Origin: a virus
DNA length: 64,000 nucleotides
Reading direction: 5' to 3' (one strand)
IMG/VR virus record: IMGVR_UViG_3300005529_000024
Location: 1 to 64,000 of that record
Below are positions 27,733-52,330 of the stretch, in pieces. Below the pieces are notes generated by a model. That model was not told where the DNA came from. It did not search any database and worked only from the letters and a program-made list of their open reading frames with translations. The translations under genes and the position numbers were made by a program. Position 1 is the first letter of the stretch. Each line of letters begins with the position of its first letter.

Positions 27733-27972
27733 ATGGATACAAAGAAAGTTGTTGACAATTTACTAAAAGAAGATTATGCTGGTGATAGCCCTGCTTCAGA
27801 GTTCGAGAATGCTATTGATTACGTAGTAGATGAGCTTGTTAATAACATGCTACATCGCCTTATTTCCGAATCTAAGCGTATTGCAGAAGAGCATAACCTT
27901 CAGAATATCGATGATATTGAGACAGTGTTTATTGAGAAGTTGATCAAGAGAATTAATAAACTAGAAGTATAA
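27733..27972 (+). CDS. leader-bearing putative internal head protein
   Basis: N-term MDTKKVVDNLLKE. Confidence 0.65.
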   Translation: MDTKKVVDNLLKEDYAGDSPASEFENAIDYVVDELVNNMLHRLISESKRIAEEHNLQNIDDIETVFIEKLIKRINKLEV

Positions 27973-27973
27973 T

Positions 27974-28279
27974 ATGCCGACTCTTAACGAGATAAGAAAA
28001 GCTCATAAGCATTGTTCTTCAAATGCAAAAGAGATATCCGAGAGTAAATTCATTGGATGTTTTTATTGCATAAACATTCACTATACCAACTGGCCCTTTT
28101 ATGAGATGGTAGATGGTGGTGAGACAGTTATCTGTCCCATGTGTGGAATAGACTCAGTGATCGGGGATGCCTCTGGTATTCCTATTACCGATGAGCTTTT
28201 AATCACAATGCATCATTATTATTTCCGTCAGGGTTATGATGCCGATGGTAATCTTGTCCCAATAGAAGAAGATTTATAA
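27974..28279 (+). CDS. conserved Cys-rich zinc-binding protein
   Basis: GCFYC...ICPMCGIDSVIGDASG. Confidence 0.7.
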   Translation: MPTLNEIRKAHKHCSSNAKEISESKFIGCFYCINIHYTNWPFYEMVDGGETVICPMCGIDSVIGDASGIPITDELLITMHHYYFRQGYDADGNLVPIEEDL

Positions 28280-28297
28280 TCTAAACTTTGGGGTGTT

Positions 28298-28549
28298 ATG
28301 GATAACTGTCCGATCTGTGAGTTGACAAATTTAAGAGTTATAAAAATTGTAACGCCTACGCCTGTCGGTGAGCATAGCATTCTCTATCCTGAGATCCCTG
28401 CTACCAGATGTCTTAATTGTAATCAAATATTCATAGAGCTAGATGGTTTGGAAATGCGAGATAAAGCTGCCAGGGTCCATCTTGCAGATCCAGTGATTCA
28501 GAGAATTAAAAAGGGTGTTAAACTAAAGCGCGGTTGGGAGAGTAATTGA
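28298..28549 (+). CDS. YgiT/MqsA-type zinc finger protein
   Basis: CPIC...IPATRCLNCNQ. Confidence 0.55.
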   Translation: MDNCPICELTNLRVIKIVTPTPVGEHSILYPEIPATRCLNCNQIFIELDGLEMRDKAARVHLADPVIQRIKKGVKLKRGWESN

Positions 28550-29316
28550 TGGAAGAGAAACAGGGTTTGGTCTTAGTAAAGGGCGGTAAGCTTCTACACA
28601 CTGAATGGGTTTATGATCGTGAGAAGAAGAAAGGATCTTATGTTACCTCAGAGGTAACAAATACTGCTCCTGCTCTTTTATTCGAGTATTGCGATTTAGC
28701 CGAAGATGTTACGCTCAAAGATATCTTTCTTCTTTTAAATACGCATCTGGATATTTTTGATTCTATACTTGGAAATTTCTGCAAAGCGATTGTCACCGAA
28801 GCATTGACTGGTCCTGAGCCTGTTAAAGATACAATCGAGATTGAATACCTTGAGCTTTACAAAGTTTATCACGTAAACTTTGAAGATAAAGAGACATATG
28901 GTGGTGCTCATCCATATTTTGGCGGTATCGGATTTGAAGAGAAAGAAGACCGTTATGATAGCGGTGGAAATCTCATGCAGCTTAAGGGACAACGTATTAA
29001 TTGGGGCGTATCATTTAGTAAGCCAAGTTATCTAGCACAGTATCCTGTCAAGCTTAATAGGCAACTAAAATTTTATGACGATACTAGCGGTAGCCCTACT
29101 GCATTCCAAGAGATAGCCTGTTATGATGGTATATCATATACTCTTGGTGATATTCTTTATGGAATCCTTTGGGAATTATCTTTTTATGGAAATCCAGCAG
29201 AGACACAAGAAATGAAAGCGGAAATTGATCGTCGCGTTGAGGAAATCAAAAGTGGCGAGGCTGAATTGATTCCTTTAAATCTTGATGAATCTGATGACAA
29301 CGAAAATGGGTGTTAA
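28546..29316 (+). CDS. hypothetical protein
   Basis: 256-aa ORF; TLGDILYGILWELSFYG. Confidence 0.7.
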   Translation: MMEEKQGLVLVKGGKLLHTEWVYDREKKKGSYVTSEVTNTAPALLFEYCDLAEDVTLKDIFLLLNTHLDIFDSILGNFCKAIVTEALTGPEPVKDTIEIEYLELYKVYHVNFEDKETYGGAHPYFGGIGFEEKEDRYDSGGNLMQLKGQRINWGVSFSKPSYLAQYPVKLNRQLKFYDDTSGSPTAFQEIACYDGISYTLGDILYGILWELSFYGNPAETQEMKAEIDRRVEEIKSGEAELIPLNLDESDDNENGC

Positions 29317-29461
29317 GAAATAAACTGGGTAAGGTATATAAAACCAAACGACACTCTTGCAAACTTTGTAAGCCACACAAAATGGGTTTAGCGCCAAAGA
29401 AGACTGCTAAAGAGCGTCAAGAAGAAAAGTTAGCACAAAAAGAAATTGATTCGAGTTTAAA

Positions 29462-29689
29462 ATGAGTATAAAAAAGTTTGTTGATAACATGTTTGAAGGA
29501 TGGCAGTCTGTTGAACCAATAGACTCCGATAAGTTTCCTGATCGTGAGAGCCAAGGTCTTGAAGGTCCGTTTCGTTTAAGGTCTGGTCTCATTGTTTATT
29601 ATGATCGTAAGGAAGGTAAATATTACAATCCAAAAACTGATATGTATCTTTCTCATGATGAATACTCTCAGCATCATCTTTTAAGATAA
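29462..29689 (+). CDS. leader-bearing putative internal head protein
   Basis: MSIKKFVDNMFE; GLEGPF...YYDRKEGKYYNPKTDMY conserved phage motif. Confidence 0.7.
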   Translation: MSIKKFVDNMFEGWQSVEPIDSDKFPDRESQGLEGPFRLRSGLIVYYDRKEGKYYNPKTDMYLSHDEYSQHHLLR

Positions 29690-29696
29690 ATAAAAA

Positions 29697-29990: not shown

Positions 29991-29994
29991 TGTG

Positions 29995-30023
29995 TTGACG
30001 GGATTATCAAACCCTGGTATAAT
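29995..30023 (+). promoter_or_regulatory. sigma70-type promoter
   Basis: TTGACG-N17-TATAAT. Confidence 0.8.
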
Positions 30024-30050
30024 TAAGTTAAAATCCTACGGCGAGAATAA

Positions 30051-30245: not shown

Positions 30246-30251
30246 ATTAAA

Positions 30252-30320: not shown

Positions 30321-30331
30321 TTTAATATGGT

Positions 30332-31651: not shown

Positions 31652-31846
31652 ATGGGTCTAAAAGATACTGTTGATGAGATGTTAAGCGGAGAAGATAGTT
31701 TCGAGAGAGACTTTCGAGATGCAGAGACTCGTATCCATGATGCCGTAAGGGTTTTGTTAGAGAAAGAATCAAAGAAGCTTGCCAGAAAGTATAAAGATTA
31801 CACTGATGCTGAATTGTATAATAAGCTGCGTAAATCGTTAGGATAA
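31652..31846 (+). CDS. leader-bearing putative internal head protein
   Basis: MGLKDTVDEMLSGE; GGAG RBS at 31642. Confidence 0.6.
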   Translation: MGLKDTVDEMLSGEDSFERDFRDAETRIHDAVRVLLEKESKKLARKYKDYTDAELYNKLRKSLG

Positions 31847-31876: not shown

Positions 31877-32467
31877 ATGAGTTTGAAGGATACTGTAGAA
31901 AAGATGTTCGAGGATGATGAACATAAAGAACTTGTTGCAGCTTATGATGAATCTGATATCACTGATAGCCATATCGCATATCTTCTTGAAGAGCCTTTAG
32001 ATCATGAAGAATTTTTTGACGACGATGAAGAGCTAATGGATATTCGTTCTCTTAGTAATAGTAATGAAGACTTTATCAGAAAGGTTAAAGAAGCAGACTT
32101 ATTTGATAAGCTCGAACGTTTAGCACGAGAACATGCATGGGCTGATCCAGATCTATACAGCATAGCTTGGGATGATGAGAAAGAAAATATAACCGCTACT
32201 ATCAATGAAATGAATCCTGATGGTCACTGGTACGCTCATTCTGAAGCTCTTACTTGGCGGCGTGTTCCTGGTTGGAAGAGATTCGATGCCTCTGATGGGC
32301 AAGAATTTCTTATGAATGTTCTTCCTAATACATCTAGTCTTACTTATAAGCTTTATAAGACAGGACCCAAAGAATTACAACTTATGGTATGGCATCATGA
32401 TGCCCCTACTGGAGAATCGATGGTTATTGAAGTTGATCATGGGGATAATGAACCAGAACAGGATTAA
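31877..32467 (+). CDS. leader-bearing acidic putative internal head protein
   Basis: MSLKDTVEKMFE. Confidence 0.7.
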   Translation: MSLKDTVEKMFEDDEHKELVAAYDESDITDSHIAYLLEEPLDHEEFFDDDEELMDIRSLSNSNEDFIRKVKEADLFDKLERLAREHAWADPDLYSIAWDDEKENITATINEMNPDGHWYAHSEALTWRRVPGWKRFDASDGQEFLMNVLPNTSSLTYKLYKTGPKELQLMVWHHDAPTGESMVIEVDHGDNEPEQD

Positions 32468-32469
32468 AA

Positions 32470-32724
32470 ATGGATGCAAAGAAAGTTGTTGATAATCTTC
32501 TGAATGAAGATGAAAGTGATATGACTTATCACGAAGATTATGAAGAGACTGTCGAACGATTAGTACGTGGCATCCAAAAAGCTATCGTAGCTGAAGCAAC
32601 ACGATTACATAACTCCTATAATCTTCGTGATTCTCTTACTAAAGAAGATATAATGTTCAATCTTCTAGATCATGTTTTAAATCTTGATAGCCGAGAATGG
32701 AATACTAATTGGAGAGAGAAATAA
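32470..32724 (+). CDS. leader-bearing putative internal head protein
   Basis: MDAKKVVDNLLNE. Confidence 0.65.
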   Translation: MDAKKVVDNLLNEDESDMTYHEDYEETVERLVRGIQKAIVAEATRLHNSYNLRDSLTKEDIMFNLLDHVLNLDSREWNTNWREK

Positions 32725-33020
32725 TGGATACAAAGAAGATTGTCGATCAGCTATTAGAAGCTGAGATCGGAATCGCTCCTGGTCTTGAATTCTCTAAGCC
32801 TGAAGATTCCAAGATGCGTCGGTTTGTTCTTGTTCGTGATGAGGATGTCCATAATAAGAGTGGTGAGGGTATCGTCGCTGAAGGTGTTGAGTTCTCAGAT
32901 GGTACTGTCGCTATGCGTTGGCTGACTAAGACAGCGAGCACTACAATTTTTAAAAACGTGGCTGAGCTTGAAAAAATTCATGGTCATGAAGGAAAAAGTA
33001 ACGTAAGGTGGATTGATTAA
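32724..33020 (+). CDS. leader-bearing protein with conserved phage domain
   Basis: MDTKKIVDQLLE; RDEDV..SGEGIVAEGVEFSDG...IHGHEG. Confidence 0.7.
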   Translation: MDTKKIVDQLLEAEIGIAPGLEFSKPEDSKMRRFVLVRDEDVHNKSGEGIVAEGVEFSDGTVAMRWLTKTASTTIFKNVAELEKIHGHEGKSNVRWID

Positions 33021-33308
33021 ATGAGAATCAAAGAGACGATAAATAGTTTATTTGAAGCGGACTTTTATGATGTGCATTCCAAGGTTATGCACATCCTTGA
33101 TATGTACGGTCTGACAAGAGAGAGCTTCATGTCGAAGACTAAGAATGCAGACAAGCATATCAATGAGCTTGTTAAGGTCTTAACAGAAGCATCTTCTGAT
33201 GAAGATAAAGATTCAGCTATTCGTACTTTTTGTTCTGTACTTCGTGATTCAGGTTATCATAACACTATCGTTGATAAAATAGAGTCTGATTTAATTGATG
33301 AGTTCTAA
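33021..33308 (+). CDS. leader-bearing putative internal head protein
   Basis: MRIKETINSLFE. Confidence 0.65.
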   Translation: MRIKETINSLFEADFYDVHSKVMHILDMYGLTRESFMSKTKNADKHINELVKVLTEASSDEDKDSAIRTFCSVLRDSGYHNTIVDKIESDLIDEF

Positions 33309-33310: not shown

Positions 33311-33640
33311 ATGAAACTGATAGACCTTGAGCCTAGATTATTTCGTTTAGCGGATATAAATGGAGACTCTGCGTCTTTAGAAAGGGTAGACAGTTTAGCT
33401 GAAGCTCAAGGCATTAGATTTGTTTGTCCAAAATGCTTCGTTAGTAATAATGGTCCTATAGGCACTCATTATATCATATGTCTTTTTAGAGATAAAGGCA
33501 TCCCAAATAATATAATGCAAACCATAGCTAGATGGTTTGTATCCGGTAAAGATTTTTCTGATCTAACTCTAACACCATCCATACTTCTTCCTGATAATTG
33601 CATGTGGCATGGTTTTATAACTAATGGTATGATTTTATGA
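33311..33640 (+). CDS. DUF6527-like metal-binding protein
   Basis: FVCPKC...LTLTPSI...CMWHGFITNG. Confidence 0.6.
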   Translation: MKLIDLEPRLFRLADINGDSASLERVDSLAEAQGIRFVCPKCFVSNNGPIGTHYIICLFRDKGIPNNIMQTIARWFVSGKDFSDLTLTPSILLPDNCMWHGFITNGMIL

Positions 33641-34572
33641 GCAATATACTATACGTGGACCAAGAGGAGCGCGTATCAAAGATAACTCCTGGAAGTGAAG
33701 AGGCTTCACCTCCTGCGCTTATCTCTCCAGAGGGTGATACTATATTTATCGATTATCATGTAATGCATGATGAAGCATTGTACGCACTTGGATTTAGATA
33801 CGGTATCGATGAGGCAATCAAGAAACATAAATGGGTTCGTGTTGTATCGTTTGATGAATTTCAACTCCCTGAATTAACTGTAAAGTATCTTGGTCTAGTC
33901 GATGACTTCATCAGCACCTATGGCTACATGAATTCTGATAAGCTCATAATCGATTTCTACGCTGGTGTTAAACTATATACTATTGAGATCTCTAAAGATG
34001 ATTATGACGATAGAGGATTGATTGGTGCTGTTAGAAATGAACTACGTCACCATGAACAGAATGCGCTTCTTGCTAGATGCCCCAAACCTATAATCACTTC
34101 TATCATGAAGTCAATGGGTATGGAGAGTGGGAAAGCTGTTAAAGAAGCTGTAGAGAAATTGTTTGAGCGAGAGAAAATTCTTCCTACGCATTTCTCTATC
34201 CTTTCTGCTCAGAAGGGTCTTTTACATGATGAGGAAGCACATAAGTCTTTGTTGCGTACTCTAACTAATTCTGGCTTTAAAAATATTATTCCTGTCGATG
34301 GGCATTATGGGAATCCGGAGAAATCAGTTATAGTTGTTCATACAGGTTCTGCTGCAAATAAAAAGAAGCTTGAGAATATCGCTCTTAATATTTTCGATCA
34401 AGAATCTATTATACATTCTGATGATTTAAAAAATGTTCTTGTGTATAATGATGGACAGAAACTTTCAGGTGCTGGTATAGAGATAGACGATACATTTAGC
34501 GATTTCTATACCGTCTTACCAAATGGTATTAAATTTAGATTAGGTATTAATCATTTTTCACATGTCGGATAA
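33637..34572 (+). CDS. two-domain protein; C-terminal T3-type S-adenosylmethionine lyase-like domain after an internal leader
   Basis: ILSAQK, AHKSLLRTL, DGHY, PEKSVIV, FDQESII, LVYNDG align in order with T3 SAMase motifs. Confidence 0.6.
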   Translation: MSNILYVDQEERVSKITPGSEEASPPALISPEGDTIFIDYHVMHDEALYALGFRYGIDEAIKKHKWVRVVSFDEFQLPELTVKYLGLVDDFISTYGYMNSDKLIIDFYAGVKLYTIEISKDDYDDRGLIGAVRNELRHHEQNALLARCPKPIITSIMKSMGMESGKAVKEAVEKLFEREKILPTHFSILSAQKGLLHDEEAHKSLLRTLTNSGFKNIIPVDGHYGNPEKSVIVVHTGSAANKKKLENIALNIFDQESIIHSDDLKNVLVYNDGQKLSGAGIEIDDTFSDFYTVLPNGIKFRLGINHFSHVG

Positions 34573-34573: not shown

Positions 34574-35248
34574 ATGGATATTAAAAGCTATATAGATAAG
34601 TTGTTTGAATCTGGTGATATCTTTTTAGCTGAAAAATTAGTTCTGAAGGATTATAAAGATTTTTCAAAGCTAGTCGCACAAGCTTACTTAGCTAGACCTG
34701 ATTACGAATCTCAGTATGCATCTTCCTGGAAAGCTTTAATCCCGTTCATTGAAAAGATGTTTAATCAGATCTCTTCGAAGGTTGATGTTGAATTTACAGA
34801 TGCTGATCCCTACAAATCCTCGAAAGCATTACGAAGGGATATCGAGCAGAACAGTAGGCTAAAAGTTTGGACTGGCGCATCTAATCATCCGATTTTTACT
34901 GAAGAACAAAACTGGAAGTTCCGAGCGATCCATGATTATATGACACATGCTACTGGTAAGCATCCTTTCTCGCTTAGGGGAGAAATTGGTGCATACAATA
35001 GACATGTAAAGACTATTCCTGTCGAAGGAAGACTTGCATTATTCACAGAGGTAATCGGTCAGGTATCTACATATTTCGAGACTTCATCGCATCCACCACA
35101 GAAGATTTGCAAGCTCTGGGGTTTTGATTACGTAAACGTTGGAAACGTGGATGAAGAAGAATATAAGAAGAACTTCCCAGATCAAGAAGATAAACCAGTT
35201 CCTGATGAAGATAAAATAACTACTGATGATCAAGAAGGTAATGTATGA
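34574..35248 (+). CDS. leader-bearing conserved phage protein (FRAIHD motif)
   Basis: MDIKSYIDKLFE; NWKFRAIHDYMTH...GEIGAY...ALFTEVIGQ. Confidence 0.7.
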   Translation: MDIKSYIDKLFESGDIFLAEKLVLKDYKDFSKLVAQAYLARPDYESQYASSWKALIPFIEKMFNQISSKVDVEFTDADPYKSSKALRRDIEQNSRLKVWTGASNHPIFTEEQNWKFRAIHDYMTHATGKHPFSLRGEIGAYNRHVKTIPVEGRLALFTEVIGQVSTYFETSSHPPQKICKLWGFDYVNVGNVDEEEYKKNFPDQEDKPVPDEDKITTDDQEGNV

Positions 35249-35673
35249 GATACGGTTGGCTTAATCCTAAAGGAGAATTTCTTTCTCTTGAAGGAAGTAC
35301 ACATGATAAGTTCATCCAGAAACATGGTTTCAGTGATCCTAGACCTGAACAGGCAGTTCGTGATGCGATTAATGCTGGTTGGGTTCGAATGCATGCTAGC
35401 GATTTAAACAAAGAGCTTAGCTTTCAATTTAATGGATCGGATGAATCTTACAGGCACATAGGATATTTCATCAGCGATCATCCTGAGACTAGTAATTATC
35501 TTATCGCGCTTGATTCTCCAGATGGCTTTGTTAATGAATTGGACCCTGAAGATATTATAAAGTATGGCGCTAAACGTGCAGCTAAGCGTATATTAGTTGG
35601 TGCAGGTTTTGGTGCTAACTATGGCGAAAGCAAGACAGTAAAAAATTACGTTGACAATTTATTTACGGATTAG
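35245..35673 (+). CDS. GWxxPxG-family protein with C-terminal leader-like motif
   Basis: GWLNPKGEF...GWVRM; ends TVKNYVDNLFTD. Confidence 0.65.
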   Translation: MRYGWLNPKGEFLSLEGSTHDKFIQKHGFSDPRPEQAVRDAINAGWVRMHASDLNKELSFQFNGSDESYRHIGYFISDHPETSNYLIALDSPDGFVNELDPEDIIKYGAKRAAKRILVGAGFGANYGESKTVKNYVDNLFTD

Positions 35674-35676: not shown

Positions 35677-36063
35677 ATGGGAATAAAGAAAACTATTGAT
35701 GAGATGTTCGAAGCCAAAAAGAAGATGAAAGCATTGGTTCGGTATGGGACCAATAAGCTCGAACCTGATACCTGGAGAAAAGTTCTCTACCATTCTGAGG
35801 ATGAAGAACTTCTGCATTCTGAAGCTGAGCGATTGAATAAGAAATATCCTGATCTTGATTTCAAGGTTGAAGATGATGAGATCGATGAAGCATCTGATTG
35901 GTTTGTATACGATGTCTTTCTTCATGGTAAAGAGATTGATACTCTCTTCTTCTCTACAGAACAAGACTTAGAAGATCTGAAACGCAGTCTTGTAAATCAT
36001 GATGGATATGATCCGGAAATTGAAGTAAAACTATACAAGGGGAAGAAGAAGCATAGTAAATAA
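35677..36063 (+). CDS. leader-bearing putative internal head protein
   Basis: MGIKKTIDEMFE. Confidence 0.7.
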   Translation: MGIKKTIDEMFEAKKKMKALVRYGTNKLEPDTWRKVLYHSEDEELLHSEAERLNKKYPDLDFKVEDDEIDEASDWFVYDVFLHGKEIDTLFFSTEQDLEDLKRSLVNHDGYDPEIEVKLYKGKKKHSK

Positions 36064-36789: not shown

Positions 36790-37221
36790 ATGGGAATAAG
36801 AGCTACAAGTTATACCGGATCAATCATTGATGGTTTATATGAGGCTGAAGTACCAGTTCCGAATATCTCACTGAAGATTGAACCAGTCACAGCACAAAAT
36901 TGGGATGAAGATCCATCTACTTGGTCGCCTACTCCTTATGTCTTGATCATCTCCCCAGAAGAGAATTTCTCTCTAGATAAACATGTGCTTAATGGTCCTA
37001 TTCTAAAGTATCTAAACGAGCTTGATTTTAAGACGCATAGAGAACATGGATCTATTACTGGTAGAGGCTTGATACAAGATGAATATGTTGAGGTAAAAAA
37101 TTATCATAAGTCTGAGATTTGGAAATTCGTTTCAGCGAATAAAGATACACTCAATACATTAAAGGAAGAGATCGTTGAGATCTTATCTGATCTTAGATAT
37201 AATCTTCAAGTGGAATCCTAA
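36790..37221 (+). CDS. hypothetical protein with leader-like N-terminus
   Basis: ...SIIDGLYE. Confidence 0.6.
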   Translation: MGIRATSYTGSIIDGLYEAEVPVPNISLKIEPVTAQNWDEDPSTWSPTPYVLIISPEENFSLDKHVLNGPILKYLNELDFKTHREHGSITGRGLIQDEYVEVKNYHKSEIWKFVSANKDTLNTLKEEIVEILSDLRYNLQVES

Positions 37222-37445
37222 TGAGCATTAAAGAAACAGTTGATAGGATGTTCGAGCATCAGTATGGTCTTGTGCAGGGTCCTCTTGATGATGAGGAAAA
37301 TACGTGTCAAAACCCTTGTGATCCTAATTCTGATTGTGAGAAATGCGCTGATTACTGGCAACGTATGAGTGACGAAGGTATGTGGGATAAGCAGAAACAT
37401 CGTTGGACCGATAAAGGTTGGGATGAAATCTTTAGGCACTTATAA
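37221..37445 (+). CDS. leader-bearing Cys/Trp-rich protein
   Basis: MSIKETVDRMFE. Confidence 0.65.
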   Translation: MSIKETVDRMFEHQYGLVQGPLDDEENTCQNPCDPNSDCEKCADYWQRMSDEGMWDKQKHRWTDKGWDEIFRHL

Positions 37446-39095: not shown

Positions 39096-39359
39096 ATGAA
39101 CACAAAGAAAATTGTTGAGAATCTACTTAATGAATCTACAGTTGAACCGTTTACTAACGCTTCTTGGGTCGGTGATTATAAGGAAGACATGAAGTTTGTT
39201 CATGCACAGCTTAAGCCTATCTATGATAGATTCAAGGATCGTGCTCGCATGGATCAAGAAGAATTAGATAATATGTTTAACGAACTTGAGCATAGAATTG
39301 ATGAGAATCTATTCAGTGCCTACCAAGAAAAGAATGCCAAAACGAGTAAGAAAGGTTAA
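39096..39359 (+). CDS. leader-bearing putative internal head protein
   Basis: MNTKKIVENLLNE. Confidence 0.65.
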   Translation: MNTKKIVENLLNESTVEPFTNASWVGDYKEDMKFVHAQLKPIYDRFKDRARMDQEELDNMFNELEHRIDENLFSAYQEKNAKTSKKG

Positions 39360-39361: not shown

Positions 39362-40024
39362 ATGTTAAAAGAATATATTGATAGTATGTTCGAAAGAGAT
39401 GAAGAAGATAGCACATACGAAAAGCTTTGTCCTAAATGTGATTCACCTATGGAGTTACTTCATCCTGATTATTGGACATGTATGCGCTGTGATGCTACAG
39501 TTCCTCATAAGGAAGTTGATGAGGCTGAGCCTAAGAATCGTGCAACCAGGACTGGATGGAGAGAACCTGAAGGAGATGATGAGGATGATTTTGATCTGAA
39601 GGTTCTTCATCGTGGTTACAATCCTGATCGTCTTACTCTTTCTATAAGTGGTAAGCCATATACTTTCTATGCTGAGCCGGAAGTCATTGAGAGATTCCAT
39701 AAGATCTTTAATCTCGGATCGAAGGGTCAAGCTCTTGCTTATTTGAAAGATAACGATATGAAGGATCGTATCATTGTCATGGAGTTTGATAAAGACATTG
39801 ATGCTGGAACAGCACAGTCTCTTCTGGATACTCTTGCTGATAAGCACCTTATTCCAAGTGTGGATTTCAGCACAAAGACAGCTTCAGCAATCATCTACTA
39901 TGCAGATCCAATTGATTTAACCCATTATAACCTAATCCGCAATAGTGTAAAGCTTGAAGGATTTACTGCTGAAGACGTTACTAAACCTAAAGCTAAGTTC
40001 TTTATGATGAAGGTTCATAAATAA
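39362..40024 (+). CDS. leader-bearing multidomain protein
   Basis: MLKEYIDSMFE; zinc ribbon CPKC..CMRC. Confidence 0.65.
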   Translation: MLKEYIDSMFERDEEDSTYEKLCPKCDSPMELLHPDYWTCMRCDATVPHKEVDEAEPKNRATRTGWREPEGDDEDDFDLKVLHRGYNPDRLTLSISGKPYTFYAEPEVIERFHKIFNLGSKGQALAYLKDNDMKDRIIVMEFDKDIDAGTAQSLLDTLADKHLIPSVDFSTKTASAIIYYADPIDLTHYNLIRNSVKLEGFTAEDVTKPKAKFFMMKVHK

Positions 40025-40446: not shown

Positions 40447-41196
40447 ATGAGCATAAAAGACACTGTTGAAAAGATGTTTGAATCAGGCGATCTTAGAGAG
40501 GATAATATTTTCGATCTGCCTGAAGGGAATTTTACTTTAACATTCGATACTAATAAGCTCTTAGAGCTATTTGATTTACCAAAGGTTGATGATCTTGAAG
40601 CGATTACCATAGACTATTGGCCTAGTGATAGTGATCTATTAAATACAAGTAAACTTGATGTGTCCCAAGACGACGATGGTAATTTTATTGATGCTGATGA
40701 GAATCCTTTACCAGAAGAAGTGATCGATGATATAAAAAGAGCTATAATGGATGCTGTGTATTCTGGTACTATGGGACGTTATCATAAGCGCATTATATCT
40801 ACGCTTGAAGAATCATTATCTACATTTCAAGATTATAAATACGAGTATTTCCCTCTGACGGATGATGGCGAGAGAACAGCTACTGGTGTTGCTAAAGGTA
40901 TTCTAAATTTTGAAGTCTCGTTTGATGAAACCAAGATTGAATGCGCTCCGGATATTGTTCACATCATAAACGATTGCATTAATGGGGTTGGTGAGTTTTA
41001 TGCGACTGATGATCTTGAAGGTGATTCTGTCGAAGAGTTTGCTAAGTCTCGTTTTCACTGGTTGAACAGATATTGGGATATCTATGGTGGTGGAAAGCCA
41101 CAAGTAGATACTGACAATATCGATGATTTCGATTCTGAATATTTCAGGACCTTATTAAAAGAGATCGAAACAGAACATAATGTCAAGCTAACCTAG
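40447..41196 (+). CDS. leader-bearing acidic putative internal head protein
   Basis: MSIKDTVEKMFE. Confidence 0.7.
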   Translation: MSIKDTVEKMFESGDLREDNIFDLPEGNFTLTFDTNKLLELFDLPKVDDLEAITIDYWPSDSDLLNTSKLDVSQDDDGNFIDADENPLPEEVIDDIKRAIMDAVYSGTMGRYHKRIISTLEESLSTFQDYKYEYFPLTDDGERTATGVAKGILNFEVSFDETKIECAPDIVHIINDCINGVGEFYATDDLEGDSVEEFAKSRFHWLNRYWDIYGGGKPQVDTDNIDDFDSEYFRTLLKEIETEHNVKLT

Positions 41197-42899: not shown

Positions 42900-43319
42900 A
42901 TGGAGCCGAAAAAACTAAGTGACGTTGAGCTTGCTAAAGCTATTCGTTTAGACATAGAGGCAGAGCTTGATGCTATCAATCTTTATGAATCTCATCTTGA
43001 ATCGACAGATAATCCAGAGGCTAAAAAAGTTCTTGAGCATGTAATCAAGGAAGAGAAAGATCATGTCTCTCTCTTCCTTGAATTACTCAAAACTCTAGAT
43101 CCAGAGCAAGAGGATATTCTAATGAAGAGTAAAGAATATTTTGGCTCTACTGTTAAAGAGATGATAGAAAGATCTTTCGATGAGGATATAAAGACTCGAA
43201 AAGTAAAACTCAAAAAGAATCTTTCGCATAATGAGGCTTTACGTTCTGTTCCAAAAAGTGTCGGTGATTTTAGAGGTTTCAAATATGATCCGGATACTGG
43301 TATAGCTTATTGTACGTAA
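42900..43319 (+). CDS. ferritin-like (encapsulin-cargo/rubrerythrin-type) protein
   Basis: AIRLDIEAELDAINLYE...VLEHVIKEEKDH di-iron motif. Confidence 0.75.
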   Translation: MEPKKLSDVELAKAIRLDIEAELDAINLYESHLESTDNPEAKKVLEHVIKEEKDHVSLFLELLKTLDPEQEDILMKSKEYFGSTVKEMIERSFDEDIKTRKVKLKKNLSHNEALRSVPKSVGDFRGFKYDPDTGIAYCT

Positions 43320-43335: not shown

Positions 43336-43590
43336 ATGGATATAAAGAAAGTCGTTGACGGCATATTAGAGACGCATTATGGTGATCTTGACCGAGGCGA
43401 AGCTGCTAGGGAGGCTAAAGCTCGTTTCACTGAAGCTGTATCTGATATGCTGAATAAGTTGGAAGAAATTCAGGATGATCTCAAAACAGCTTGGAGCAAG
43501 GCTCATTATGAGGAAACTCGGTTAGCTACGTATAAGCTACGTGACGCTATTGTGTTGATAAAAGAATTACGTGAATCATTTTGGGAATAA
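43336..43590 (+). CDS. leader-bearing putative internal head protein
   Basis: MDIKKVVDGILE. Confidence 0.65.
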   Translation: MDIKKVVDGILETHYGDLDRGEAAREAKARFTEAVSDMLNKLEEIQDDLKTAWSKAHYEETRLATYKLRDAIVLIKELRESFWE

Positions 43591-43899: not shown

Positions 43900-44118
43900 A
43901 TGGTATACGCTAAGAAGTTTCTGAAATATTTGTTAGATCAGTTGCTAGATAAGGTATTTCATGTTATAATAGTAGCGTTATGTGTTTTCTCTTATAATCT
44001 ATGGTACTCAGGTAATGTGAATTTGAATATTGTAAAGGGTCAACTTCAGGAACGACTTGGAAGCGAAATCCAATTAAAAGCTCAATGTGAATTAGATCAT
44101 AAAAGGAAAATAAAATGA
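43900..44118 (+). CDS. membrane protein
   Basis: One TM helix. Confidence 0.5.
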   Translation: MVYAKKFLKYLLDQLLDKVFHVIIVALCVFSYNLWYSGNVNLNIVKGQLQERLGSEIQLKAQCELDHKRKIK

Positions 44119-45599
44119 GTATAAAGGATATTGTTGAAAATCTCTTTGATGGGGATAATTATACAGCACAAGATTTATTCCTCTATATCAGTAGCGATAG
44201 AGATCTCCATAGCCAGAATATTATTCCTATCCGGAAGAATCTAGTTAACAAAATGGAAAAAGGAATTTTCGATTTCGAGAAGTCTGTTAAGCTTTGGATG
44301 CATCTTGTTGATGCTGGTGCAAAAAAGTATAACGTTGAGTTTGGACCGGATGATGCTAAAGTCTTTGATCGTGCGACAAGATTAGCTGTTGCAGAAGAAT
44401 TGGCTAAAGAATTTGTCACTGAGTATGAGCTTGGCAACTATGATGAATTGAAGAAATCTAAAAGAGAAGCTCTTCAATATTCAGGCGATGAGATGTGGCC
44501 TGGTACTGGTAATGATCCTCTTGGCGATAGCGAGAATAAAGACGAACATTGCGGCCATTGTGGTAAAGATATGAATGAATCCGATGGTGGTTCTCTACCT
44601 ACCGAATGGGGTACTCTTCATTACCGTATCTCTGATGATGGTATAACATTCTATATCGATGATACTTTTGATAAAGCTGGCTTGAAAGAGGAAGCTGATC
44701 AAAAGGGTCTCTTCCATGTTGAGTCCGAACTATTTGATCATCTGATGGCAAACGGTTGGGATTGGATTCGTCCTGAAGATGTTGGTGGACTAACAGATGC
44801 TCCGATTATTAGCGATAGTGCCATTTACAATGATCAAGGTGAGTTAGAATCTGTTGATTATGTGTATTGGTATCCAAATTATCAAGTCGGTAGCATAGTA
44901 GATGATCTTGTTGACTCTGATGAATCATTCTGGCCTAAAGTTCAAGGGGAGAAGGAAGAATCTATAGACGAAGATCAGAAACTTGGTAAAGTTGGTCAAC
45001 GTGTTCGCGTTTCTGCTGGATCTGGAGTAGACTCTAATAAACTCGGTACAGTTGTTGATAAATCTGAAGTTGAGACAGACGGACGAGGCGTACCAACAAA
45101 CGTATCCGGTGCTTATAAGCCAGTTGATTGGAAGAGAGAATTAGCCGTAAGATTAGACTCAGGTGAACTTATTCTAATGTTCAAAGATAGATTATTCCCT
45201 GTTGAGGAGGAGTCTATGAAAGAAAATCGTAGTCTTAGTAGCAAGTTCGATCATTGGATGGATCAGTTTGCATGGCAACTATCCATGGATGGTGCTACCG
45301 AGGAGCTAGGAGATTCAGAGACTTTCGGATACTATGTGCTTCTGACATGGGGAGATCCTGATCATATGGTAGAGGATTTCAACCGCGTAGCTGCTGATAT
45401 CAACGCGGAACCTCTTACCCCTGAAGAGATTGAAGAGATTAAATCTTATAACTATAAGGCCGTTATTCTCATGGAGAATTCCCAGGGCTTTGTTTTCTCA
45501 GATTGGTTTGAAGACGAAGCTACTGCTACGGAAGCATGGCAGGCAATAGCTGACGAATGGGAAAAATATCATGAAGATAGTAACGATGATGATCTATGA
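44115..45599 (+). CDS. leader-bearing acidic multidomain protein (possible polyprotein)
   Basis: MSIKDIVENLFD; modules separated by MNE/IDE/MKE linkers. Confidence 0.7.
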   Translation: MSIKDIVENLFDGDNYTAQDLFLYISSDRDLHSQNIIPIRKNLVNKMEKGIFDFEKSVKLWMHLVDAGAKKYNVEFGPDDAKVFDRATRLAVAEELAKEFVTEYELGNYDELKKSKREALQYSGDEMWPGTGNDPLGDSENKDEHCGHCGKDMNESDGGSLPTEWGTLHYRISDDGITFYIDDTFDKAGLKEEADQKGLFHVESELFDHLMANGWDWIRPEDVGGLTDAPIISDSAIYNDQGELESVDYVYWYPNYQVGSIVDDLVDSDESFWPKVQGEKEESIDEDQKLGKVGQRVRVSAGSGVDSNKLGTVVDKSEVETDGRGVPTNVSGAYKPVDWKRELAVRLDSGELILMFKDRLFPVEEESMKENRSLSSKFDHWMDQFAWQLSMDGATEELGDSETFGYYVLLTWGDPDHMVEDFNRVAADINAEPLTPEEIEEIKSYNYKAVILMENSQGFVFSDWFEDEATATEAWQAIADEWEKYHEDSNDDDL

Positions 45600-46159: not shown

Positions 46160-46874
46160 TGACGAATTTCTATTGCACAATTGGTTTAATTCAGAGCTAA
46201 GCAAGTCTGGGACTGAAGAGCTTACAGATGCTGCTGTATCATCTAGTGCAGATATGGCTGATCTTCAGAGCAGGTATAGTTCGTTGTTTACTTCAGTTCT
46301 TGAACCTCTTGCTACCGCATTAAGAAACAGTGTAAGCGCGGCTATAAAAGATTGTCCTAATGTTGATTCTGTACGAACACGAGCAAAGGGTATTCCTAGT
46401 TTCATTTTAAAAGCTTCCAAGCTTTATAATACAGCGAATGAGACATTCCCTAAATACGATGATCCCTTGAATGAGATCCAAGATCAACTCGGTGCTCTTG
46501 TTCTTGTGCGATATACAAACAATGTAGACTGCGTTGTTGAGACAATTAAATCTCACTTTAAGGCTGTCGAAGATAAGCTCATTGTTCCTGATGAACCAAA
46601 TGAATTTGGTTATGAGGGTCATCACATTGTATTACTTCTGCCGGATGCACTATTAGAGCCTTATAAAGATAATAAGGATTGTCCCAAGTTTTTCGAGCTA
46701 CAGATCAAAACTCTGTATCAATATGCATGGTCGGAAGCTGGTCACAACATTGCTTACAAGGGTCACAATCTTACGGAAGAACAAAAGAAGACGATTGCAT
46801 TCTTGGCTTCGATGACATGGGGTAGCGACAAAATCTTTTCTGATCTCGCAAGAACATTCGGAGAACTACAGTGA
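46152..46874 (+). CDS. RelA/SpoT-domain small alarmone synthetase
   Basis: RTRAKG..SF..K, IQDQLG, GYEGHH, FELQIKTLYQYAWSEAGHNIAYK. Confidence 0.85.
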   Translation: MDNDEFLLHNWFNSELSKSGTEELTDAAVSSSADMADLQSRYSSLFTSVLEPLATALRNSVSAAIKDCPNVDSVRTRAKGIPSFILKASKLYNTANETFPKYDDPLNEIQDQLGALVLVRYTNNVDCVVETIKSHFKAVEDKLIVPDEPNEFGYEGHHIVLLLPDALLEPYKDNKDCPKFFELQIKTLYQYAWSEAGHNIAYKGHNLTEEQKKTIAFLASMTWGSDKIFSDLARTFGELQ

Positions 46875-47200
46875 GTATTAAAAAGTATATAGATAAAGTA
46901 AACGAATCAAGACAAGAGTATATGCGTTATTACGCTGAAGCTGGAGTTTGGATCTTTCTTGAGCCGTCTGATTTCGAGTATGACAATAAGATCCAAGATT
47001 TGAAAGATAATAAGGAATTATCAATCGAAGAGAAGATTAGGGAAGCTAAAGAGTATACACATACGGTCGCTTTAGGAAAAGCAGCAGAATTGGAGAGCTT
47101 AGCCGAAGAGAGATTCGGCATAAAGCTATCAATTGATGTTAGCTCAACCTCTGATGATCATATTAATTGGTACGATATTTTTGAACCTGAACAGGATTAA
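46871..47200 (+). CDS. leader-bearing putative internal head protein
   Basis: MSIKKYIDKVNE. Confidence 0.6.
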   Translation: MSIKKYIDKVNESRQEYMRYYAEAGVWIFLEPSDFEYDNKIQDLKDNKELSIEEKIREAKEYTHTVALGKAAELESLAEERFGIKLSIDVSSTSDDHINWYDIFEPEQD

Positions 47201-47218: not shown

Positions 47219-47506
47219 ATGAAGAAAGACATTTCTAAATTAGCTGATCAAATTTTGGAAGATCATGCACGTAAATCAGTTCCATGGTGGGAAAGTCCAC
47301 TTTCTGGAGAAGAGAAGACTCTCGGTAAGTATAATGACGGCAAGGATGCTTTCCTGAAAGGAAAGAAAGATGCCCCCCTTATTGAGAAACGCGGTAAGTC
47401 TGGTGGATCTCTGGCCCGTAAAACTGGTCCTCTTATGAAGAGCCACAGCGAGCGTCCTATGCAGGAGAAGAAAGCTTCAAAACGTTGTAAACATTGTGGA
47501 AAATAA
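47219..47506 (+). CDS. basic protein with leader-like N-terminus
   Basis: ISKLADQILE; AGGAG RBS. Confidence 0.6.
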   Translation: MKKDISKLADQILEDHARKSVPWWESPLSGEEKTLGKYNDGKDAFLKGKKDAPLIEKRGKSGGSLARKTGPLMKSHSERPMQEKKASKRCKHCGK

Positions 47507-48754: not shown

Positions 48755-49240
48755 ATGAGCCTAAAAGATAGGCTTGATCTCGTATTCTCTGAGATACTGG
48801 AGGATGCAGATCAGGTTGACAGTCTTCCTATTGCCTTGTCAAAAAAGACTACTGCTAAGTTCGAGCCTTTATCTTCTTCCTATGCTATGACTTTTTTAAA
48901 GGTTGATTCGAATAAAGGTTCTTATACATTCAAAATATATCACGTGCCGCAAGATAACGTTGCTGTCATATACACTTATGATTCTGATGGTCGTTATCTT
49001 GGTCTTTACAGTAAAGACAACATTAACAACACAGATGAGTTAGCAAGTTTCGTTAACGATGTCTTAGACAGAGTTAATCCCACTAAATCTGATGGTGATA
49101 ACAGAGATGTCGGCCATTTAGGGAATGCCGGTACGGGTCCCAAACAGTTTATGTCCGATCCTTCAACTTCCGGCGTATCTAGTGACCTTCTATCTCAGAG
49201 GGGATTCTACTCTTTAGAAAGTAAAGAGATAAAGAAATAA
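48755..49240 (+). CDS. hypothetical protein with leader-like N-terminus
   Basis: MSLKDRLDLVFSEILE. Confidence 0.6.
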   Translation: MSLKDRLDLVFSEILEDADQVDSLPIALSKKTTAKFEPLSSSYAMTFLKVDSNKGSYTFKIYHVPQDNVAVIYTYDSDGRYLGLYSKDNINNTDELASFVNDVLDRVNPTKSDGDNRDVGHLGNAGTGPKQFMSDPSTSGVSSDLLSQRGFYSLESKEIKK

Positions 49241-49279
49241 TTTATTAACAAAAAAGAAATATTTTAAGGGGTAATACAA

Positions 49280-49570: not shown

Positions 49571-49578
49571 TTAATCAT

Positions 49579-49613: not shown

Positions 49614-49629
49614 TAAATTTAGGTTTTTG

Positions 49630-50208
49630 ATGAAGATTAAAGATTTAATTGAGGATGGTGAAGGTGTGCAGATGGGAGGTACTTATGCCCCCCTGCAAAA
49701 AGATATGGGTGATATCGATCATTCGCCTTCTTTTCAAGATAAATCTGCTGCCGACACTAAAGAATCTTTGTTCAATCCTCCCAAGCAAAAAGGTGTTAAC
49801 GCTGATAAATATCTTTCTCAAGTCAAGAAGGATCAGTCGTTAGTCTCTAAGCAGTTGGGTATAAAGGTTGAAGTTCTTGCTGCTGAAGAAAAAGAGGAAT
49901 GGTTACAAATCTCTACACCAGCAGGACATTACAAAGTTCATAGTACGGCTGAAAAAATAGATGTAAAAAATAATCGGAACTATCACAAAATCACAATTGA
50001 TATCTATGATAACGATGGTAGCTCGCTGGTGAGTTCTTATACTACAGTGAAGCCGCGTTATTTCAGTGTTGATGAGTTGATAGACTTATACTTCCGGGCA
50101 TACCTTAAAGCAGGCGCTGTAAAAAATAAGCCTGCTGATAATATGGTAAATGGTCAACCAGGTGCATTAGCACCTCTTTCACCTTTGAAGCCTGGTGGAA
50201 ACTTATAA
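49630..50208 (+). CDS. putative head protein with short leader
   Basis: MKIKDLIE at ATG 49630. Confidence 0.6.
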   Translation: MKIKDLIEDGEGVQMGGTYAPLQKDMGDIDHSPSFQDKSAADTKESLFNPPKQKGVNADKYLSQVKKDQSLVSKQLGIKVEVLAAEEKEEWLQISTPAGHYKVHSTAEKIDVKNNRNYHKITIDIYDNDGSSLVSSYTTVKPRYFSVDELIDLYFRAYLKAGAVKNKPADNMVNGQPGALAPLSPLKPGGNL

Positions 50209-50220
50209 TCGGAGAAATTA

Positions 50221-50454
50221 ATGGTAGGAAAGTTTAAGAACGTAACTAATTTTACTCTAACGATTGCTAGAAACGTCAAGGTCAATCCTGATGAAGTATA
50301 TGATGGGGAAGTTGAGGATAATTTAGTTACACGTGGAATGCTCATTCCTGTTGAGTCTTTAAAAGTAACGACAAAGAAATCAACAATTCTTCTAGAGAAT
50401 AAAGAACTTTCTGAAGAGTCTTTGAATAAATATGGACAAGAAACTTCTCAATGA
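50221..50454 (+). CDS. hypothetical protein
   Basis: GGAG RBS. Confidence 0.55.
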   Translation: MVGKFKNVTNFTLTIARNVKVNPDEVYDGEVEDNLVTRGMLIPVESLKVTTKKSTILLENKELSEESLNKYGQETSQ

Positions 50455-52330
50455 GTTTATAAGAAAAACAAAAGGTAAAGAAGAATACTGCGTATTCTCA
50501 CACCAGACTAACAAGAATTTCGGTTGTTACCCTTCCAAAGCAAAAGCAAATAAGCGATTAGGACAGATAAAAATGTTTTCAAAAATGAAAGAATCTATCG
50601 ATAAGCTATTTGCTGAAATGTCATCTGTGACTCCTAATTATGGTCCAGATGCATTAGAGCGAGGTGGTGATGATCAAAGACTATCACGACAAATGCTTCT
50701 CTTTATCGACGGCAAGCGTAAGAATGGTGCTGTCAAAGATGAGATTATCGATGATCTAAAAAACTTATATAGTCTTACTGGTGAGCAAGCTGAAAACTAT
50801 CTCAACATGTATCTGGATTGGAAAGCATCTAAGATGGAATCAAAACTTAACGAAGCTACTGACTATCCCTTTCTTAATCATATAAAAGATCCTATGCGGT
50901 TGCATAGTGATGGTGAAAGCGAGCTAATAAATCTCCCGCTTTTTTGTGTTGGCTCCCTTCAATTATATGGTGCAGAATCCGAGCCTTTGTTTGATATTCG
51001 CATAGATTCAAGAGCTAAGATTCAAGAATCTATGGAAAAATCTGATACTCTCACAGAGGAAATAGAAGAGGAGTTTGAAAGAGATTATATCAGTGGTTCT
51101 TGGTCAAACTGGATTAAAGGTTGGGTTACTCGCAAGGGTGGAGAAGTAGAACATTCTGGCAATACTTATAATGAAGACTCAGCACACTATTGGGGTGATA
51201 TATTCGAATATACAGCATTCAAGGATCTAGATGGTCATGATGGTGCTATTATCATGTGGCATCATGGCGGGGATGTTCGCGGTAATTATGGTCTTCCAGA
51301 AGTATGGTTTGGTGATTTTGAAGAATTTTTCTCAGCTCAATATTTTTCTGAGTCTAGTGAAGAAATAGCCTACATGCTTGGTTACGAGGGTGATTTTTCT
51401 AAATTAGAAGATGATATCAAGCGATGGAAGAATGACGAAGAGTATATTCCATCACAAAAAGATAAAGAGGATATGGGACAAGAAAGGCTTCCTGGCATGG
51501 AATCAAAACAAGAAGTAACAGATTTGAATGTTCGTGATCGTTACTCAGAGCTTGGACTAGCGGAACCTTATACCTTCGCATATGAGGCTGCTCCTAGCGA
51601 AACTGGTGTTACTGTTAAACATCGGCTTCGAAAAGGACCAATGGGTATCGTAAAGAATATCATTGGTAAGAGTGCTGTCGTAGCTTGGGATGACGGGACA
51701 AAAGGAACTTATCCACTATCTGTTCTTACTACCGAATCTAAGGTTGAAGACAAAAAGGTAGATGAGATTACCGGAACAGGAATGGTCGGCACTTATTCAA
51801 AACCTTTCGCATTCTCTTCTGCGGACATTGATGATCTTGCTAAAGAGATGAAGAAGAAAAAAGCTAAGAAAGAATCTGCTAACTACGATCAAGAGGGAAA
51901 TATGAATGGAGAGGATCGTAGCCGTGGTTCTGCATTCGCTTCTGGTCCTGGTTCTAATGTTGGCACGAGCGATGATCGTACTGCTTCTATCGATAAGATA
52001 TTCCAGTATGCTGCTCCTTATCTAGTCAAAGCTGAAAGCAAAGAAGATAAATCCATGCCTGAACTCATGAAGCTGTGGAAACGTCTTGCTGATGTTCCAG
52101 TGGATGATAATGGAAATATCCAGCATTCATTTTTGAGCTTTCCCTCTGGTACTCATAGGGAAGATATCTGGCACTGGTTTGAAGCTCAAAATCCTGAATT
52201 TTCTGTTGCTAAAGCTATGAAAATGTCTGAGAGCGTGATCGTAATTCCTCCTGCTACTGAGGGATCGGTTAGTAAAGAAGATATTGTAAAAGAGCTTGAG
52301 GATGTTGCTAGACAATTAAGGATTAAATAG
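50432..52330 (+). CDS. large modular putative internal head protein (possible polyprotein)
   Basis: MDKKLLNE; KNFGCYPSKAKANKRLGQI domain; internal MKESIDKLFAE; FPSGTHREDIWHWFE domain. Confidence 0.7.
   Translation: MDKKLLNEFIRKTKGKEEYCVFSHQTNKNFGCYPSKAKANKRLGQIKMFSKMKESIDKLFAEMSSVTPNYGPDALERGGDDQRLSRQMLLFIDGKRKNGAVKDEIIDDLKNLYSLTGEQAENYLNMYLDWKASKMESKLNEATDYPFLNHIKDPMRLHSDGESELINLPLFCVGSLQLYGAESEPLFDIRIDSRAKIQESMEKSDTLTEEIEEEFERDYISGSWSNWIKGWVTRKGGEVEHSGNTYNEDSAHYWGDIFEYTAFKDLDGHDGAIIMWHHGGDVRGNYGLPEVWFGDFEEFFSAQYFSESSEEIAYMLGYEGDFSKLEDDIKRWKNDEEYIPSQKDKEDMGQERLPGMESKQEVTDLNVRDRYSELGLAEPYTFAYEAAPSETGVTVKHRLRKGPMGIVKNIIGKSAVVAWDDGTKGTYPLSVLTTESKVEDKKVDEITGTGMVGTYSKPFAFSSADIDDLAKEMKKKKAKKESANYDQEGNMNGEDRSRGSAFASGPGSNVGTSDDRTASIDKIFQYAAPYLVKAESKEDKSMPELMKLWKRLADVPVDDNGNIQHSFLSFPSGTHREDIWHWFEAQNPEFSVAKAMKMSESVIVIPPATEGSVSKEDIVKELEDVARQLRIK

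Follow-up and report, generated by a model that had tools for sequence, protein, structure and literature searches.

A short leader peptide on unrelated proteins of a distant T4-like soil phage, a candidate capsid-targeting tag

The virus record IMGVR_UViG_3300005529_000024 is 174,395 bp long (39% G+C), has nearly all of its coding on the plus strand, and represents a distant T4-like myophage. Within its first 64 kb, which form the window analysed here and to which coordinates refer unless the full record is named, lies a gene cluster in which a leader of 12-13 amino acids (aa), M-[SDG]-[ILT]-K-x-x-[VI]-[DE]-x-[ML]-[FL]-E, starts 17 otherwise unrelated proteins. On the same strand and 3.4 kb downstream of the cluster are genes for a gp21-type prohead protease and a gp23-type major capsid protein, followed by adaptor, sheath, tube and baseplate-hub genes; the portal gene, at about 128 kb, is unlinked to the head genes. 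The closest capsid proteins in cultured phages (LIS04, Bacillus SP-15 and HSE3, Thornevirus-like) share 39% identity, and the closest protease homologue among 5.8 billion proteins shares 42%. Neither a capsid-protein search of IMG/VR nor a DNA-level search of a phage collection returned a close relative, and the genome paper of SP-15 does not include a virion proteome. The phage DNA was present in one soil metagenome run only, the probable source run, and no RNA run is listed.

A leader peptide at the start of seventeen genes

A preliminary description of the window had listed 16 consensus N-termini, and all of them were present where it had placed them (Table 1). A position matrix built from 15 of the listed N-termini was applied to all 9,624 start codons found in the six frames of the genome, which gave 16 matches scoring 16.4-30.4, the genome's next best site scoring 8.8. 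A hidden Markov model (HMM) of the leader, a scan that had been proposed as a check, was run over all stop-to-stop frames and recovered the same 16 genes together with 39362, whose leader is one residue shorter, giving 17 genes. A loose regular expression applied at every ATG, GTG and TTG in six frames of the entire genome also produced 17 matches, all on the plus strand between 27733 and 48755 and none elsewhere; this set includes the weak site 31277 and misses 46871. The 17 leader genes are all on the plus strand and are confined to 27733-49240, which is 12% of the genome. When N-termini were clustered de novo, with no motif given, 15 leader genes were recovered together with one stray. Applied to T4 as a positive control, the same clustering recovered ipI, ipII and ipIII together with the small gene 61.1, and in the control phage LIS04 it gave no family larger than two.

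The leaders fall into two subtypes, ending in -M-F-E and -L-L-x-E, and Lys at position 4 is invariant. Codon positions 1 and 2 are conserved, whereas position 3 carries almost no information and Leu is spelled with five codons; because of this variation, conservation of the leader is placed at the peptide level. The synonymous variation rules out a conserved DNA or RNA element, and selection acts on the leader peptide.

Copies away from the N-terminus were evaluated by scoring every internal 11-mer of every protein with the matrix (about 49,600 positions). The genome's two best internal matches were the stretch starting at residue 167 of the 33637 protein and the C-terminus of the 35245 protein, with 47219, in which the leader is offset by three residues, ranking next. 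The copy in 33637 is associated with no start codon or ribosome-binding site suited to a separate gene. The defensible tally is 17 strong sites plus three supported ones (33637, 35245 and 47219). The stretches at 1701, 36268, 36790, 43624, 49630, 42900 and 50432 score 1-8, values reached by dozens of unrelated sites; they may be real, and they are inseparable from chance. Among the looser N-terminal forms of the preliminary description, 48755 thus moved into the strong set and 47219 was supported, while 1701, 36268, 36790, 43624, 49630 and 50432 fell into the noise; among its internal or C-terminal copies, those in 33637 and 35245 stood and those in 42900 and 50432 did not rise above background. 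The early region, which has strong sigma70-type promoters, carries no leader, as had been noted, its sole weak match being 1701 with a score of 6.6.

The protease has, in its scaffold half, three repeats (K-I-x-D-x-L-L-E) that resemble the leader to the eye; they were considered as leader copies and rejected, as they score only 5.6, within the noise. Apart from the protease, a 68-aa gene at position 100014 of the full record is the sole gene beyond the cluster that fits the leader pattern in its first seven residues, and it lacks the remainder of the leader. The genes 35245-35673 and 36268-36780 are the only paralogous pair involving the leader (27% identity); the 35245 protein ends in its leader copy, and the 36268 protein ends in a degenerate copy, one residue longer.

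Table 1. Leader genes, further leader copies and associated genes in the window (scores are matrix scores unless stated otherwise)
Feature	Coordinates	Strand	Details
Leader gene	27733..27972	+	79 aa; subtype M-D-T-K-K-V-V-D-N-L-L-x-E; 24.4, HMM 20.8 bits
Leader gene	29462..29689	+	75 aa; 30.4, the genome's best
Leader gene	31652..31846	+	64 aa; 24.3
Leader gene	31877..32467	+	196 aa, net charge -32; 28.3
Leader gene	32470..32724	+	84 aa; 24.1
Leader gene	32724..33020	+	98 aa; 25.7
Leader gene	33021..33308	+	95 aa; 20.7
Leader gene	34574..35248	+	224 aa; 23.6; phrog_3170 body
Leader gene	35677..36063	+	128 aa; 28.2; phrog_6353 on residues 77-118 only
Leader gene	37221..37445	+	74 aa; 29.1
Leader gene	39096..39359	+	87 aa; 22.5
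Leader gene	39362..40024	+	220 aa, leader one residue shorter; found by HMM (11.1 bits) and regular expression
Leader gene	40447..41196	+	249 aa, net charge -37; 29.8
Leader gene	43336..43590	+	84 aa; 24.1
Leader gene	44115..45599	+	494 aa, net charge -63, Asp for Glu at leader position 12; 25.5
Leader gene	46871..47200	+	109 aa, GTG start overlapping the RelA/SpoT-like gene; 17.3
Leader gene, weakest of the strong set	48755..49240	+	161 aa; 16.4, leave-one-out 5.7
Internal leader copy	34135..34176	+	residues 167-180 of the 311-aa protein 33637-34572; 14.2
Predicted SAM-lyase-fold domain behind the internal leader	34174..34572	+	AlphaFold2 pLDDT 94.2, PDB matches
C-terminal leader copy	35632..35670	+	end of the 142-aa protein 35245-35673; 11.2
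Probable divergent member	47219..47506	+	95 aa, basic, leader offset by three residues; 10.4
EncFtn-like ferritin	42900..43319	+	PF22277 E 2.1e-9; leader-like residues 83-96 after the ferritin domain, 4.3 (noise)
Composite protein	50432..52330	+	632 aa; three PHROG matches; leader-like residues 51-63, 7.5 (noise)
gp21-type prohead protease with coiled-coil scaffold-like half	52619..54052	+	PF03420 E 7.5e-26
gp23-type major capsid protein	54141..55517	+	PF07068 E 6.1e-62

Leader shape and the neighbouring head genes

Over residues 2-12, the leader genes have a helical hydrophobic moment of 0.58, compared with 0.31 +/- 0.15 for other genes. In an AlphaFold2 (AF2) model of the 34574 protein (pLDDT 87.7), the leader forms a helix of its own (residues 3-12), which a disordered linker (14-22) connects to a core modelled with confidence from about residue 28 onwards. 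Leader positions 4, 7, 10 and 12 are invariant or near-invariant, positions 10-12 being [ML]-[FL]-E or, one residue later, L-x-E. The pattern [LIMF]-x-E with its Glu at residue 11-14 occurs in 14 of the 17 leaders as against 7% of other genes, and in 12 of these 14 leaders the motif Glu is followed by G, A, S, T or D. From its sequence, the leader is predicted to be an amphipathic helix ending in a hydrophobic-x-Glu site of the gp21 type. In the T4 capsid targeting sequence (CTS), which is 10-19 residues long, targeting depends on residues 4 and 7 and processing on residues 8 and 10 (PMC9026906).

The gp21 homologue that had been reported at 52619 was confirmed by its Pfam match (Table 1). Its C-terminal half, 300 residues of scaffold-like coiled coil, is fused to the protease also in relatives, including Listeria phage LIS04. 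Outside the leader set, leader positions 1-7 were matched by only two called genes, one of which is this protease-scaffold protein; after these leader-like positions its N-terminus has L-L-E at residues 7-9 (LLE-9), parallel to the LIE-9 of T4 gp21 (PMC9026906). T4 gp22 begins with a CTS-like peptide ending in I-A-E. The capsid protein is 27% identical to T4 gp23, its residue 68 being aligned opposite gp23 residue 95, and at residue 44 its propeptide has I-L-L-E, no more than about 6 residues away from the position aligned to the gp23 cleavage site. A model of tagged 37221 with the protease-scaffold protein had a complex score of 0.00, which is evidence neither way.

A genome-wide promoter scan located 23 strong sigma70-type promoters, which lie in five blocks (2-24, 90-96, 114-120, 130-139 and 152-155 kb) and at one isolated site at about 63 kb. 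It found no strong early (sigma70-type) promoter between 24 and 62 kb, so that the cluster continues straight into the head and tail genes. Attempts to define a late-promoter consensus by word enrichment and with trial motifs yielded nothing beyond the ribosome-binding site and the early sigma70-type promoters, and generic promoter and terminator scans gave counts not above those of shuffled controls.

Bodies behind the leader and leaders in other phages

With the leader masked, no blastp match was obtained between any two leader proteins at E 0.01, and net charge is negative in all 17 (-2 to -63, at sizes of 64-494 aa), which bears out the earlier view of the bodies as unrelated and acidic. 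Their median isoelectric point (pI) is 4.9, compared with 6.3 genome-wide. Searches of Pfam and PHROGs left nearly all tagged proteins without a match, and a protein atlas returned nothing for 44115 or 40447. Where a body does have homologues, similarity begins only after the leader.

The 34574 protein matches phrog_3170 over residues 30-181 (E 1.3e-16) and has 96 homologues at 34-61% identity, in which the conserved core begins about 20 residues in and each lineage has its own short N-terminal peptide ahead of the common core. In BFVD its fold matches (probability 1.0) domains that lie inside phage proteins with the names 'head morphogenesis', 'ART-PolyVal-like' and 'large polyvalent protein associated', and comparison of the model with the PDB (Foldseek, VIA-align) gave no match, the best Z being 2.8. 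Other phages have the phrog_3170 domain in proteins of the polyvalent and MuF types, and the 34574 core lies inside gp205 of Rhodococcus phage E3, a 'structural protein' by GenBank annotation. In the family core, five residues (His, Asp, His, Glu and His) are invariant, and together with the model this points to a putative enzyme-like domain, uncharacterised and widespread in phages.

Residues 180-311 of the 33637 protein are predicted with high confidence (Table 1) to have the SAM-lyase fold. The top PDB matches of the model are T3 SAM lyase entries, 8bb1_E (E 2.2e-5, TM-score 0.69) and 7ock_K (E 2.8e-4), and the Svi3-3 entries 6zm9 and 6znb match much more weakly (E 0.019 and 0.12, TM-score 0.33-0.35). 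The domain reaches 23.0 bits against PF23780, below the cut-off of 28, and PF23780 is found in six of nine homologues of the domain, in one of them above the cut-off; by sequence it appears to be rather a sister branch of the SAM lyases than a member. A phmmer search of 33637 against the PDB and a word-based homologue search with the C-terminal domain found nothing. Sixty relatives of the domain are mostly parts of proteins of 500-1800 residues that also contain NUDIX and GNAT domains, and such multidomain (polyvalent) architecture has been predicted to be head-packaged and injected (PMC5512222).

The ferritin encoded at 42900 scores 37.5 bits against PF22277 (cut-off 27) and matches Myxococcus xanthus EncC (7s8t) with E 2.1e-23. 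Its similarity to EncC stops at residue 73, and the tail beyond holds the weak, noise-level leader copy; an encapsulin-type loading peptide is not visible on the protein. A homologue was present in one of 50,697 phage records, that of Eggerthella phage LE2-3, and this type of ferritin is very rare in phages. The 50432 protein, which adjoins the protease, has three short PHROG matches (residues 8-55, 405-432 and 542-594), all to small proteins whose function is unknown; it is a composite of small domains that stand alone in other phages, with no enzymatic domain identified, and the 311-aa protein 33637 is likewise a composite of small domains. The candidate cargo that can be identified (polyvalent domain, SAM-lyase fold and EncFtn ferritin) comes from families that in other systems are packaged into heads or loaded into compartments.

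One marine group of 34574 homologues begins with M-K-[IL]-L-[FL]-E-N-W-R, the fuller leader being M-K-L-L-[LF]-E-N-W-R-x-[FY]-[LI]-x-E, in uncultured marine T4-like phages (IMG/VR loci L133-L252, e.g. L171, L212 and L178). A degenerate scan for this peptide found more than 120 IMG/VR stretches with up to five tandem copies each and 196 genes; 165 of these genes encode 40 aa or more, and their bodies represent at least 79 unrelated families, that of 34574 among them. A gp21-type protease is encoded in each of the five complete marine genomes tested (180-204 kb, with terminal repeats), and exact pattern matches number 2-6 per complete genome. The marine and soil leaders differ in sequence; the DNA of the marine leader is nearly identical between copies, whereas the leader described here has diverged at synonymous sites. 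We found no paper describing the marine leader in the literature. Comparison of the homologues indicates that the tag on one cargo family, that of 34574, changes from lineage to lineage among T4-like phages.

Two degenerate DNA scans of IMG/VR for the soil-phage leader returned single matches per contig only and no arrays, and the leader HMM gave at most one match in each of five records. Prohead proteases adjoin two of roughly five matching families. In two unrelated IMG/VR phages, a protein encoded near such a protease starts with a near-identical leader peptide: in L078 it is encoded at 6081-6569 (minus strand), two genes upstream of a gp21-type protease, and in L007/L121 (L121 9-551, minus strand) directly after an XkdF-type protease; in L016 a similar stretch lies inside the protein in the gp22 position. 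These few matches, selected by the pattern, are suggestive of leader-like peptides beside prohead proteases elsewhere, and leader-shaped N-termini may be common on core or scaffold proteins.

Proposed capsid targeting and the alternatives

In T4, IpI, IpII, IpIII and Alt carry the CTS, which the gp21 prohead protease cuts off (Mullaney and Black 1996; PMC9026906, PMC3012670, PMC8442874, PMC12373910). The T4 internal proteins (Ips) have the leader alone in common. They are both packaged and injected, and each of the three is an inhibitor of GmrSD-type restriction enzymes (PMC3012670, PMC12373910). The phage described here resembles T4 in having a single short N-terminal peptide (12-13 aa) on unrelated proteins of one phage, a leader end of the form hydrophobic-x-Glu, and genes for a gp21-family protease and a gp23-family capsid protein. 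In both phages, core proteins of the phage itself start with a related peptide (gp22 in T4, the protease-scaffold fusion here), and at least one cargo is of anti-restriction type. From these likenesses, from the position of the cluster beside the head genes with no strong early promoter separating them, and from cargo families known to be packaged elsewhere, we consider that the leader is probably a T4-type capsid-targeting and cleavage tag. That the tagged proteins are in addition delivered into the host is suggested by analogy with T4, and we put this forward more tentatively, as a real but lesser possibility. The preliminary description had proposed that dozens of effectors are loaded into the head; capsid targeting remains the best-supported reading of the leader, and the number was overstated, at 17 strong and about three supported sites.

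The leaders of the two phages differ without significant similarity: the leader HMM finds nothing in T4, whose CTS is MKTYQEFIAE, and the resemblance is only general (Lys ... acidic ... hydrophobic-x-Glu). There are 17-20 tagged genes here as compared with three Ips and Alt in T4, a four- to fivefold larger number. The contrast drawn earlier with T4's three internal proteins must be tempered, since reports exist of at least 10 Ip types across T4 relatives, many recognised by such a signal (PMC12373910). Further differences from T4 are that copies of the tag are also internal and C-terminal, that the scaffold is fused to the protease, and that the portal gene is unlinked. An internal stretch of T4 gp68 with a matrix score of 15.0 was discarded as a counterpart, as a T4-wide scan gave two higher scores and one similar score in unrelated proteins.

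According to the mechanism that we propose, the leader would form a short amphipathic helix on a flexible tether, as sequence analysis and one model suggest, and this helix would dock the protein onto the assembling prohead core, mainly onto the protease-scaffold fusion protein. The gp21-type protease would then cut after the Glu of hydrophobic-x-Glu, a step proposed from the motif, and free the body inside the head. At infection the bodies may exit with the DNA and act early, some of them against host defence, as T4 and the identity of the cargo suggest. Since copies are also found internally and at a C-terminus, the tag is probably a position-independent docking helix and not a strict N-terminal signal. 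A bolder version, which we regard as rather doubtful, makes the head a programmable compartment for at least 20 proteins addressed by such a position-independent helix. The SAM lyase would be cleaved from a two-domain precursor, the composites would be cut into small proteins, the loading peptide of the ferritin would have been replaced by the tag, and the acidic cargo would imply packing and delivery unlike those of T4.

Other packaging systems share part of this design. In phiKZ and SPN3US, propeptides of ejection or inner-body proteins are cut by a gp21-related protease (PMC5694885, PMC7411985), so that, as would be the case here, many head-internal proteins are processed by a T4-type protease and a large cargo mass is delivered to the host; the N-terminal propeptides are inferred to target the proteins into the prohead. 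Those propeptides are, however, mostly more than 100 residues long and not one common short tag, their motif is small-x-Glu, and the proteins were found by virion mass spectrometry, whereas here genes were read. In encapsulins (EncFtn; M. xanthus EncB and EncC; 7s8t, 7s5c), a short terminal peptide sends diverse cargo into an HK97-fold shell and is portable between termini, and the cluster described here holds a close relative of EncC; unlike the proposed tag, encapsulin peptides bind the shell protein itself and stay uncleaved. The polyvalent and MuF proteins (PMC5512222) are similar in that the 34574 core and the SAM-lyase-like domain occur inside such multidomain proteins, whose delivery has been deduced from covalent fusion to head or portal domains, whereas the proteins here are mostly encoded by separate genes with a short tag on each.

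Several observations weigh against capsid targeting of the T4 type. The cargo is acidic, whereas T4 internal proteins are highly basic (PMC8442874); acidic cargo beside packed DNA is contrary to the T4 model and makes the analogy incomplete. LIS04, the closest cultured relative that was examined, has the same protease-scaffold fusion, but neither the leader HMM nor the clustering of N-termini revealed a leader family in it, so that the tag is not general to this head type. The 44115 leader has Asp where Glu is expected, and a Glu-to-Asp change at the T4 CTS site blocks processing (PMC9026906); two more leaders are without the motif in register. The I-L-L-E in the capsid propeptide is weak evidence because the hydrophobic-x-Glu tripeptide is common. 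Untagged genes (membrane or lipoprotein-like, DnaJ-domain and RelA/SpoT-like) interrupt the cluster, which is therefore not a pure cargo operon. The phage has no close relative and a single soil metagenome source, and the tagged proteins are known as predicted gene products.

The acidity of the cargo would be accommodated if the tag did target the prohead but the tagged proteins were accessory core or scaffold components that aid in building or sizing the head and are then degraded and expelled like T4 gp22, gp67 and gp68, and not effectors. In charge they resemble the acidic tail of gp67 and not the basic Ips; many are small and without recognisable fold or family, and the peptides beside the prohead proteases of L078 and L007/L121, together with the stretch in the gp22-position protein of L016, point the same way. 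These IMG/VR contexts are, however, few and were chosen by the pattern itself, and 17 unrelated scaffold accessories would be unprecedented. The SAM-lyase fold, the polyvalent domain and the putative enzyme core with invariant His, Asp and Glu resemble effectors, and we consider the accessory role unlikely.

The invariant Lys4 and the DnaJ-domain gene inside the cluster could instead suggest that the leader is read in the cytoplasm, independently of the head, by a modifying enzyme, by a J-domain protein acting with host DnaK, or by Pup-related tagging at Lys4. Pfam and PHROGs revealed no modifying enzyme family in or beside the cluster, the tagged proteins (64-494 aa) include folded enzymes and are unlike precursor peptides, the conserved leader end is a protease-type motif, and pupylation is not known to have a sequence motif; this explanation is very improbable. 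To another sorting or stability signal, such as a membrane-binding helix, a host export signal or an N-terminal degron timing removal, we give slightly less credence again. The strong amphipathicity of the peptide, the helical and acidic nature of several small tagged proteins (one with a very weak WXG100 match, E 0.03) and the membrane and lipoprotein-like genes in the cluster speak for such a signal, but the leader lacks both a hydrophobic core and a net positive charge and therefore cannot be a Sec/Tat signal or a typical membrane anchor. The internal and C-terminal copies argue against a signal that requires a free N-terminus, and nothing links the cluster to an export system. That the leader has no function of its own and is left over from the duplication of genes or from recombination between their starts (a shuffling cassette), as the tandem, co-oriented genes and the almost identical DNA of the marine leader copies might suggest, is hardly credible, being largely refuted by synonymous sites that vary freely while the amino acids are kept and also opposed by bodies that lack mutual similarity, two of which have homologues elsewhere without the leader.

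The principle behind the proposed capsid-targeting tag is already in print for T-even phages, in which unrelated injected proteins have a common packaging leader and their genes are recognisable by it (PMC3012670, PMC12373910). What is new in the present case is that a very distant lineage has a different leader, that 17-20 genes of a single genome are tagged, that the cargo is acidic and partly enzymatic, and that, as sequence comparison indicates, one cargo family bears different tags by lineage; the probable use of the tag internally and at a C-terminus is new as well. If the proposal is true, the first proteins delivered into the host become listable from sequence, with about 20 candidates in this phage, nearly all of unknown family. 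They would be candidates for early host take-over and counter-defence, T4's three being specific restriction-enzyme inhibitors (PMC12373910). The design of tag plus head protease would reach far past the T-even phages, to a soil phage with a capsid protein that shares only 27% identity with T4's, and tags for one and the same cargo family would have arisen separately in different lineages. The soil and marine leaders suggest a search rule for such cargo, namely to look for an N-terminal peptide that is peculiar to one genome and ends in the motif of the protease itself, and a 12-residue capsid-loading tag would be useful for engineering, as the T4 CTS has been.

Among the untagged genes in the cluster, 40024-40446 encodes a J-domain protein (PF00226, E 1e-19) and 46152-46874 a RelA/SpoT-type nucleotidyltransferase (PF04607, E 3.7e-9). 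Directly after the capsid gene, 55601-56206 encodes a trypsin-like serine peptidase (PF13365, E 6e-13) whose N-terminus resembles a signal peptide; it is a second protease in the head module and is apparently exported. Another N-terminal family, M-A-[LF]-D-[PS]-[IV]-V-N-F-G-[KV]-V-T, comprises three genes of 271-343 aa at 3576-4595 of the window and at 71664-72479 and 75141-76172 of the full record, two of which are in the fibre region; this N-terminus is probably a shared docking end of interchangeable fibre-like proteins.

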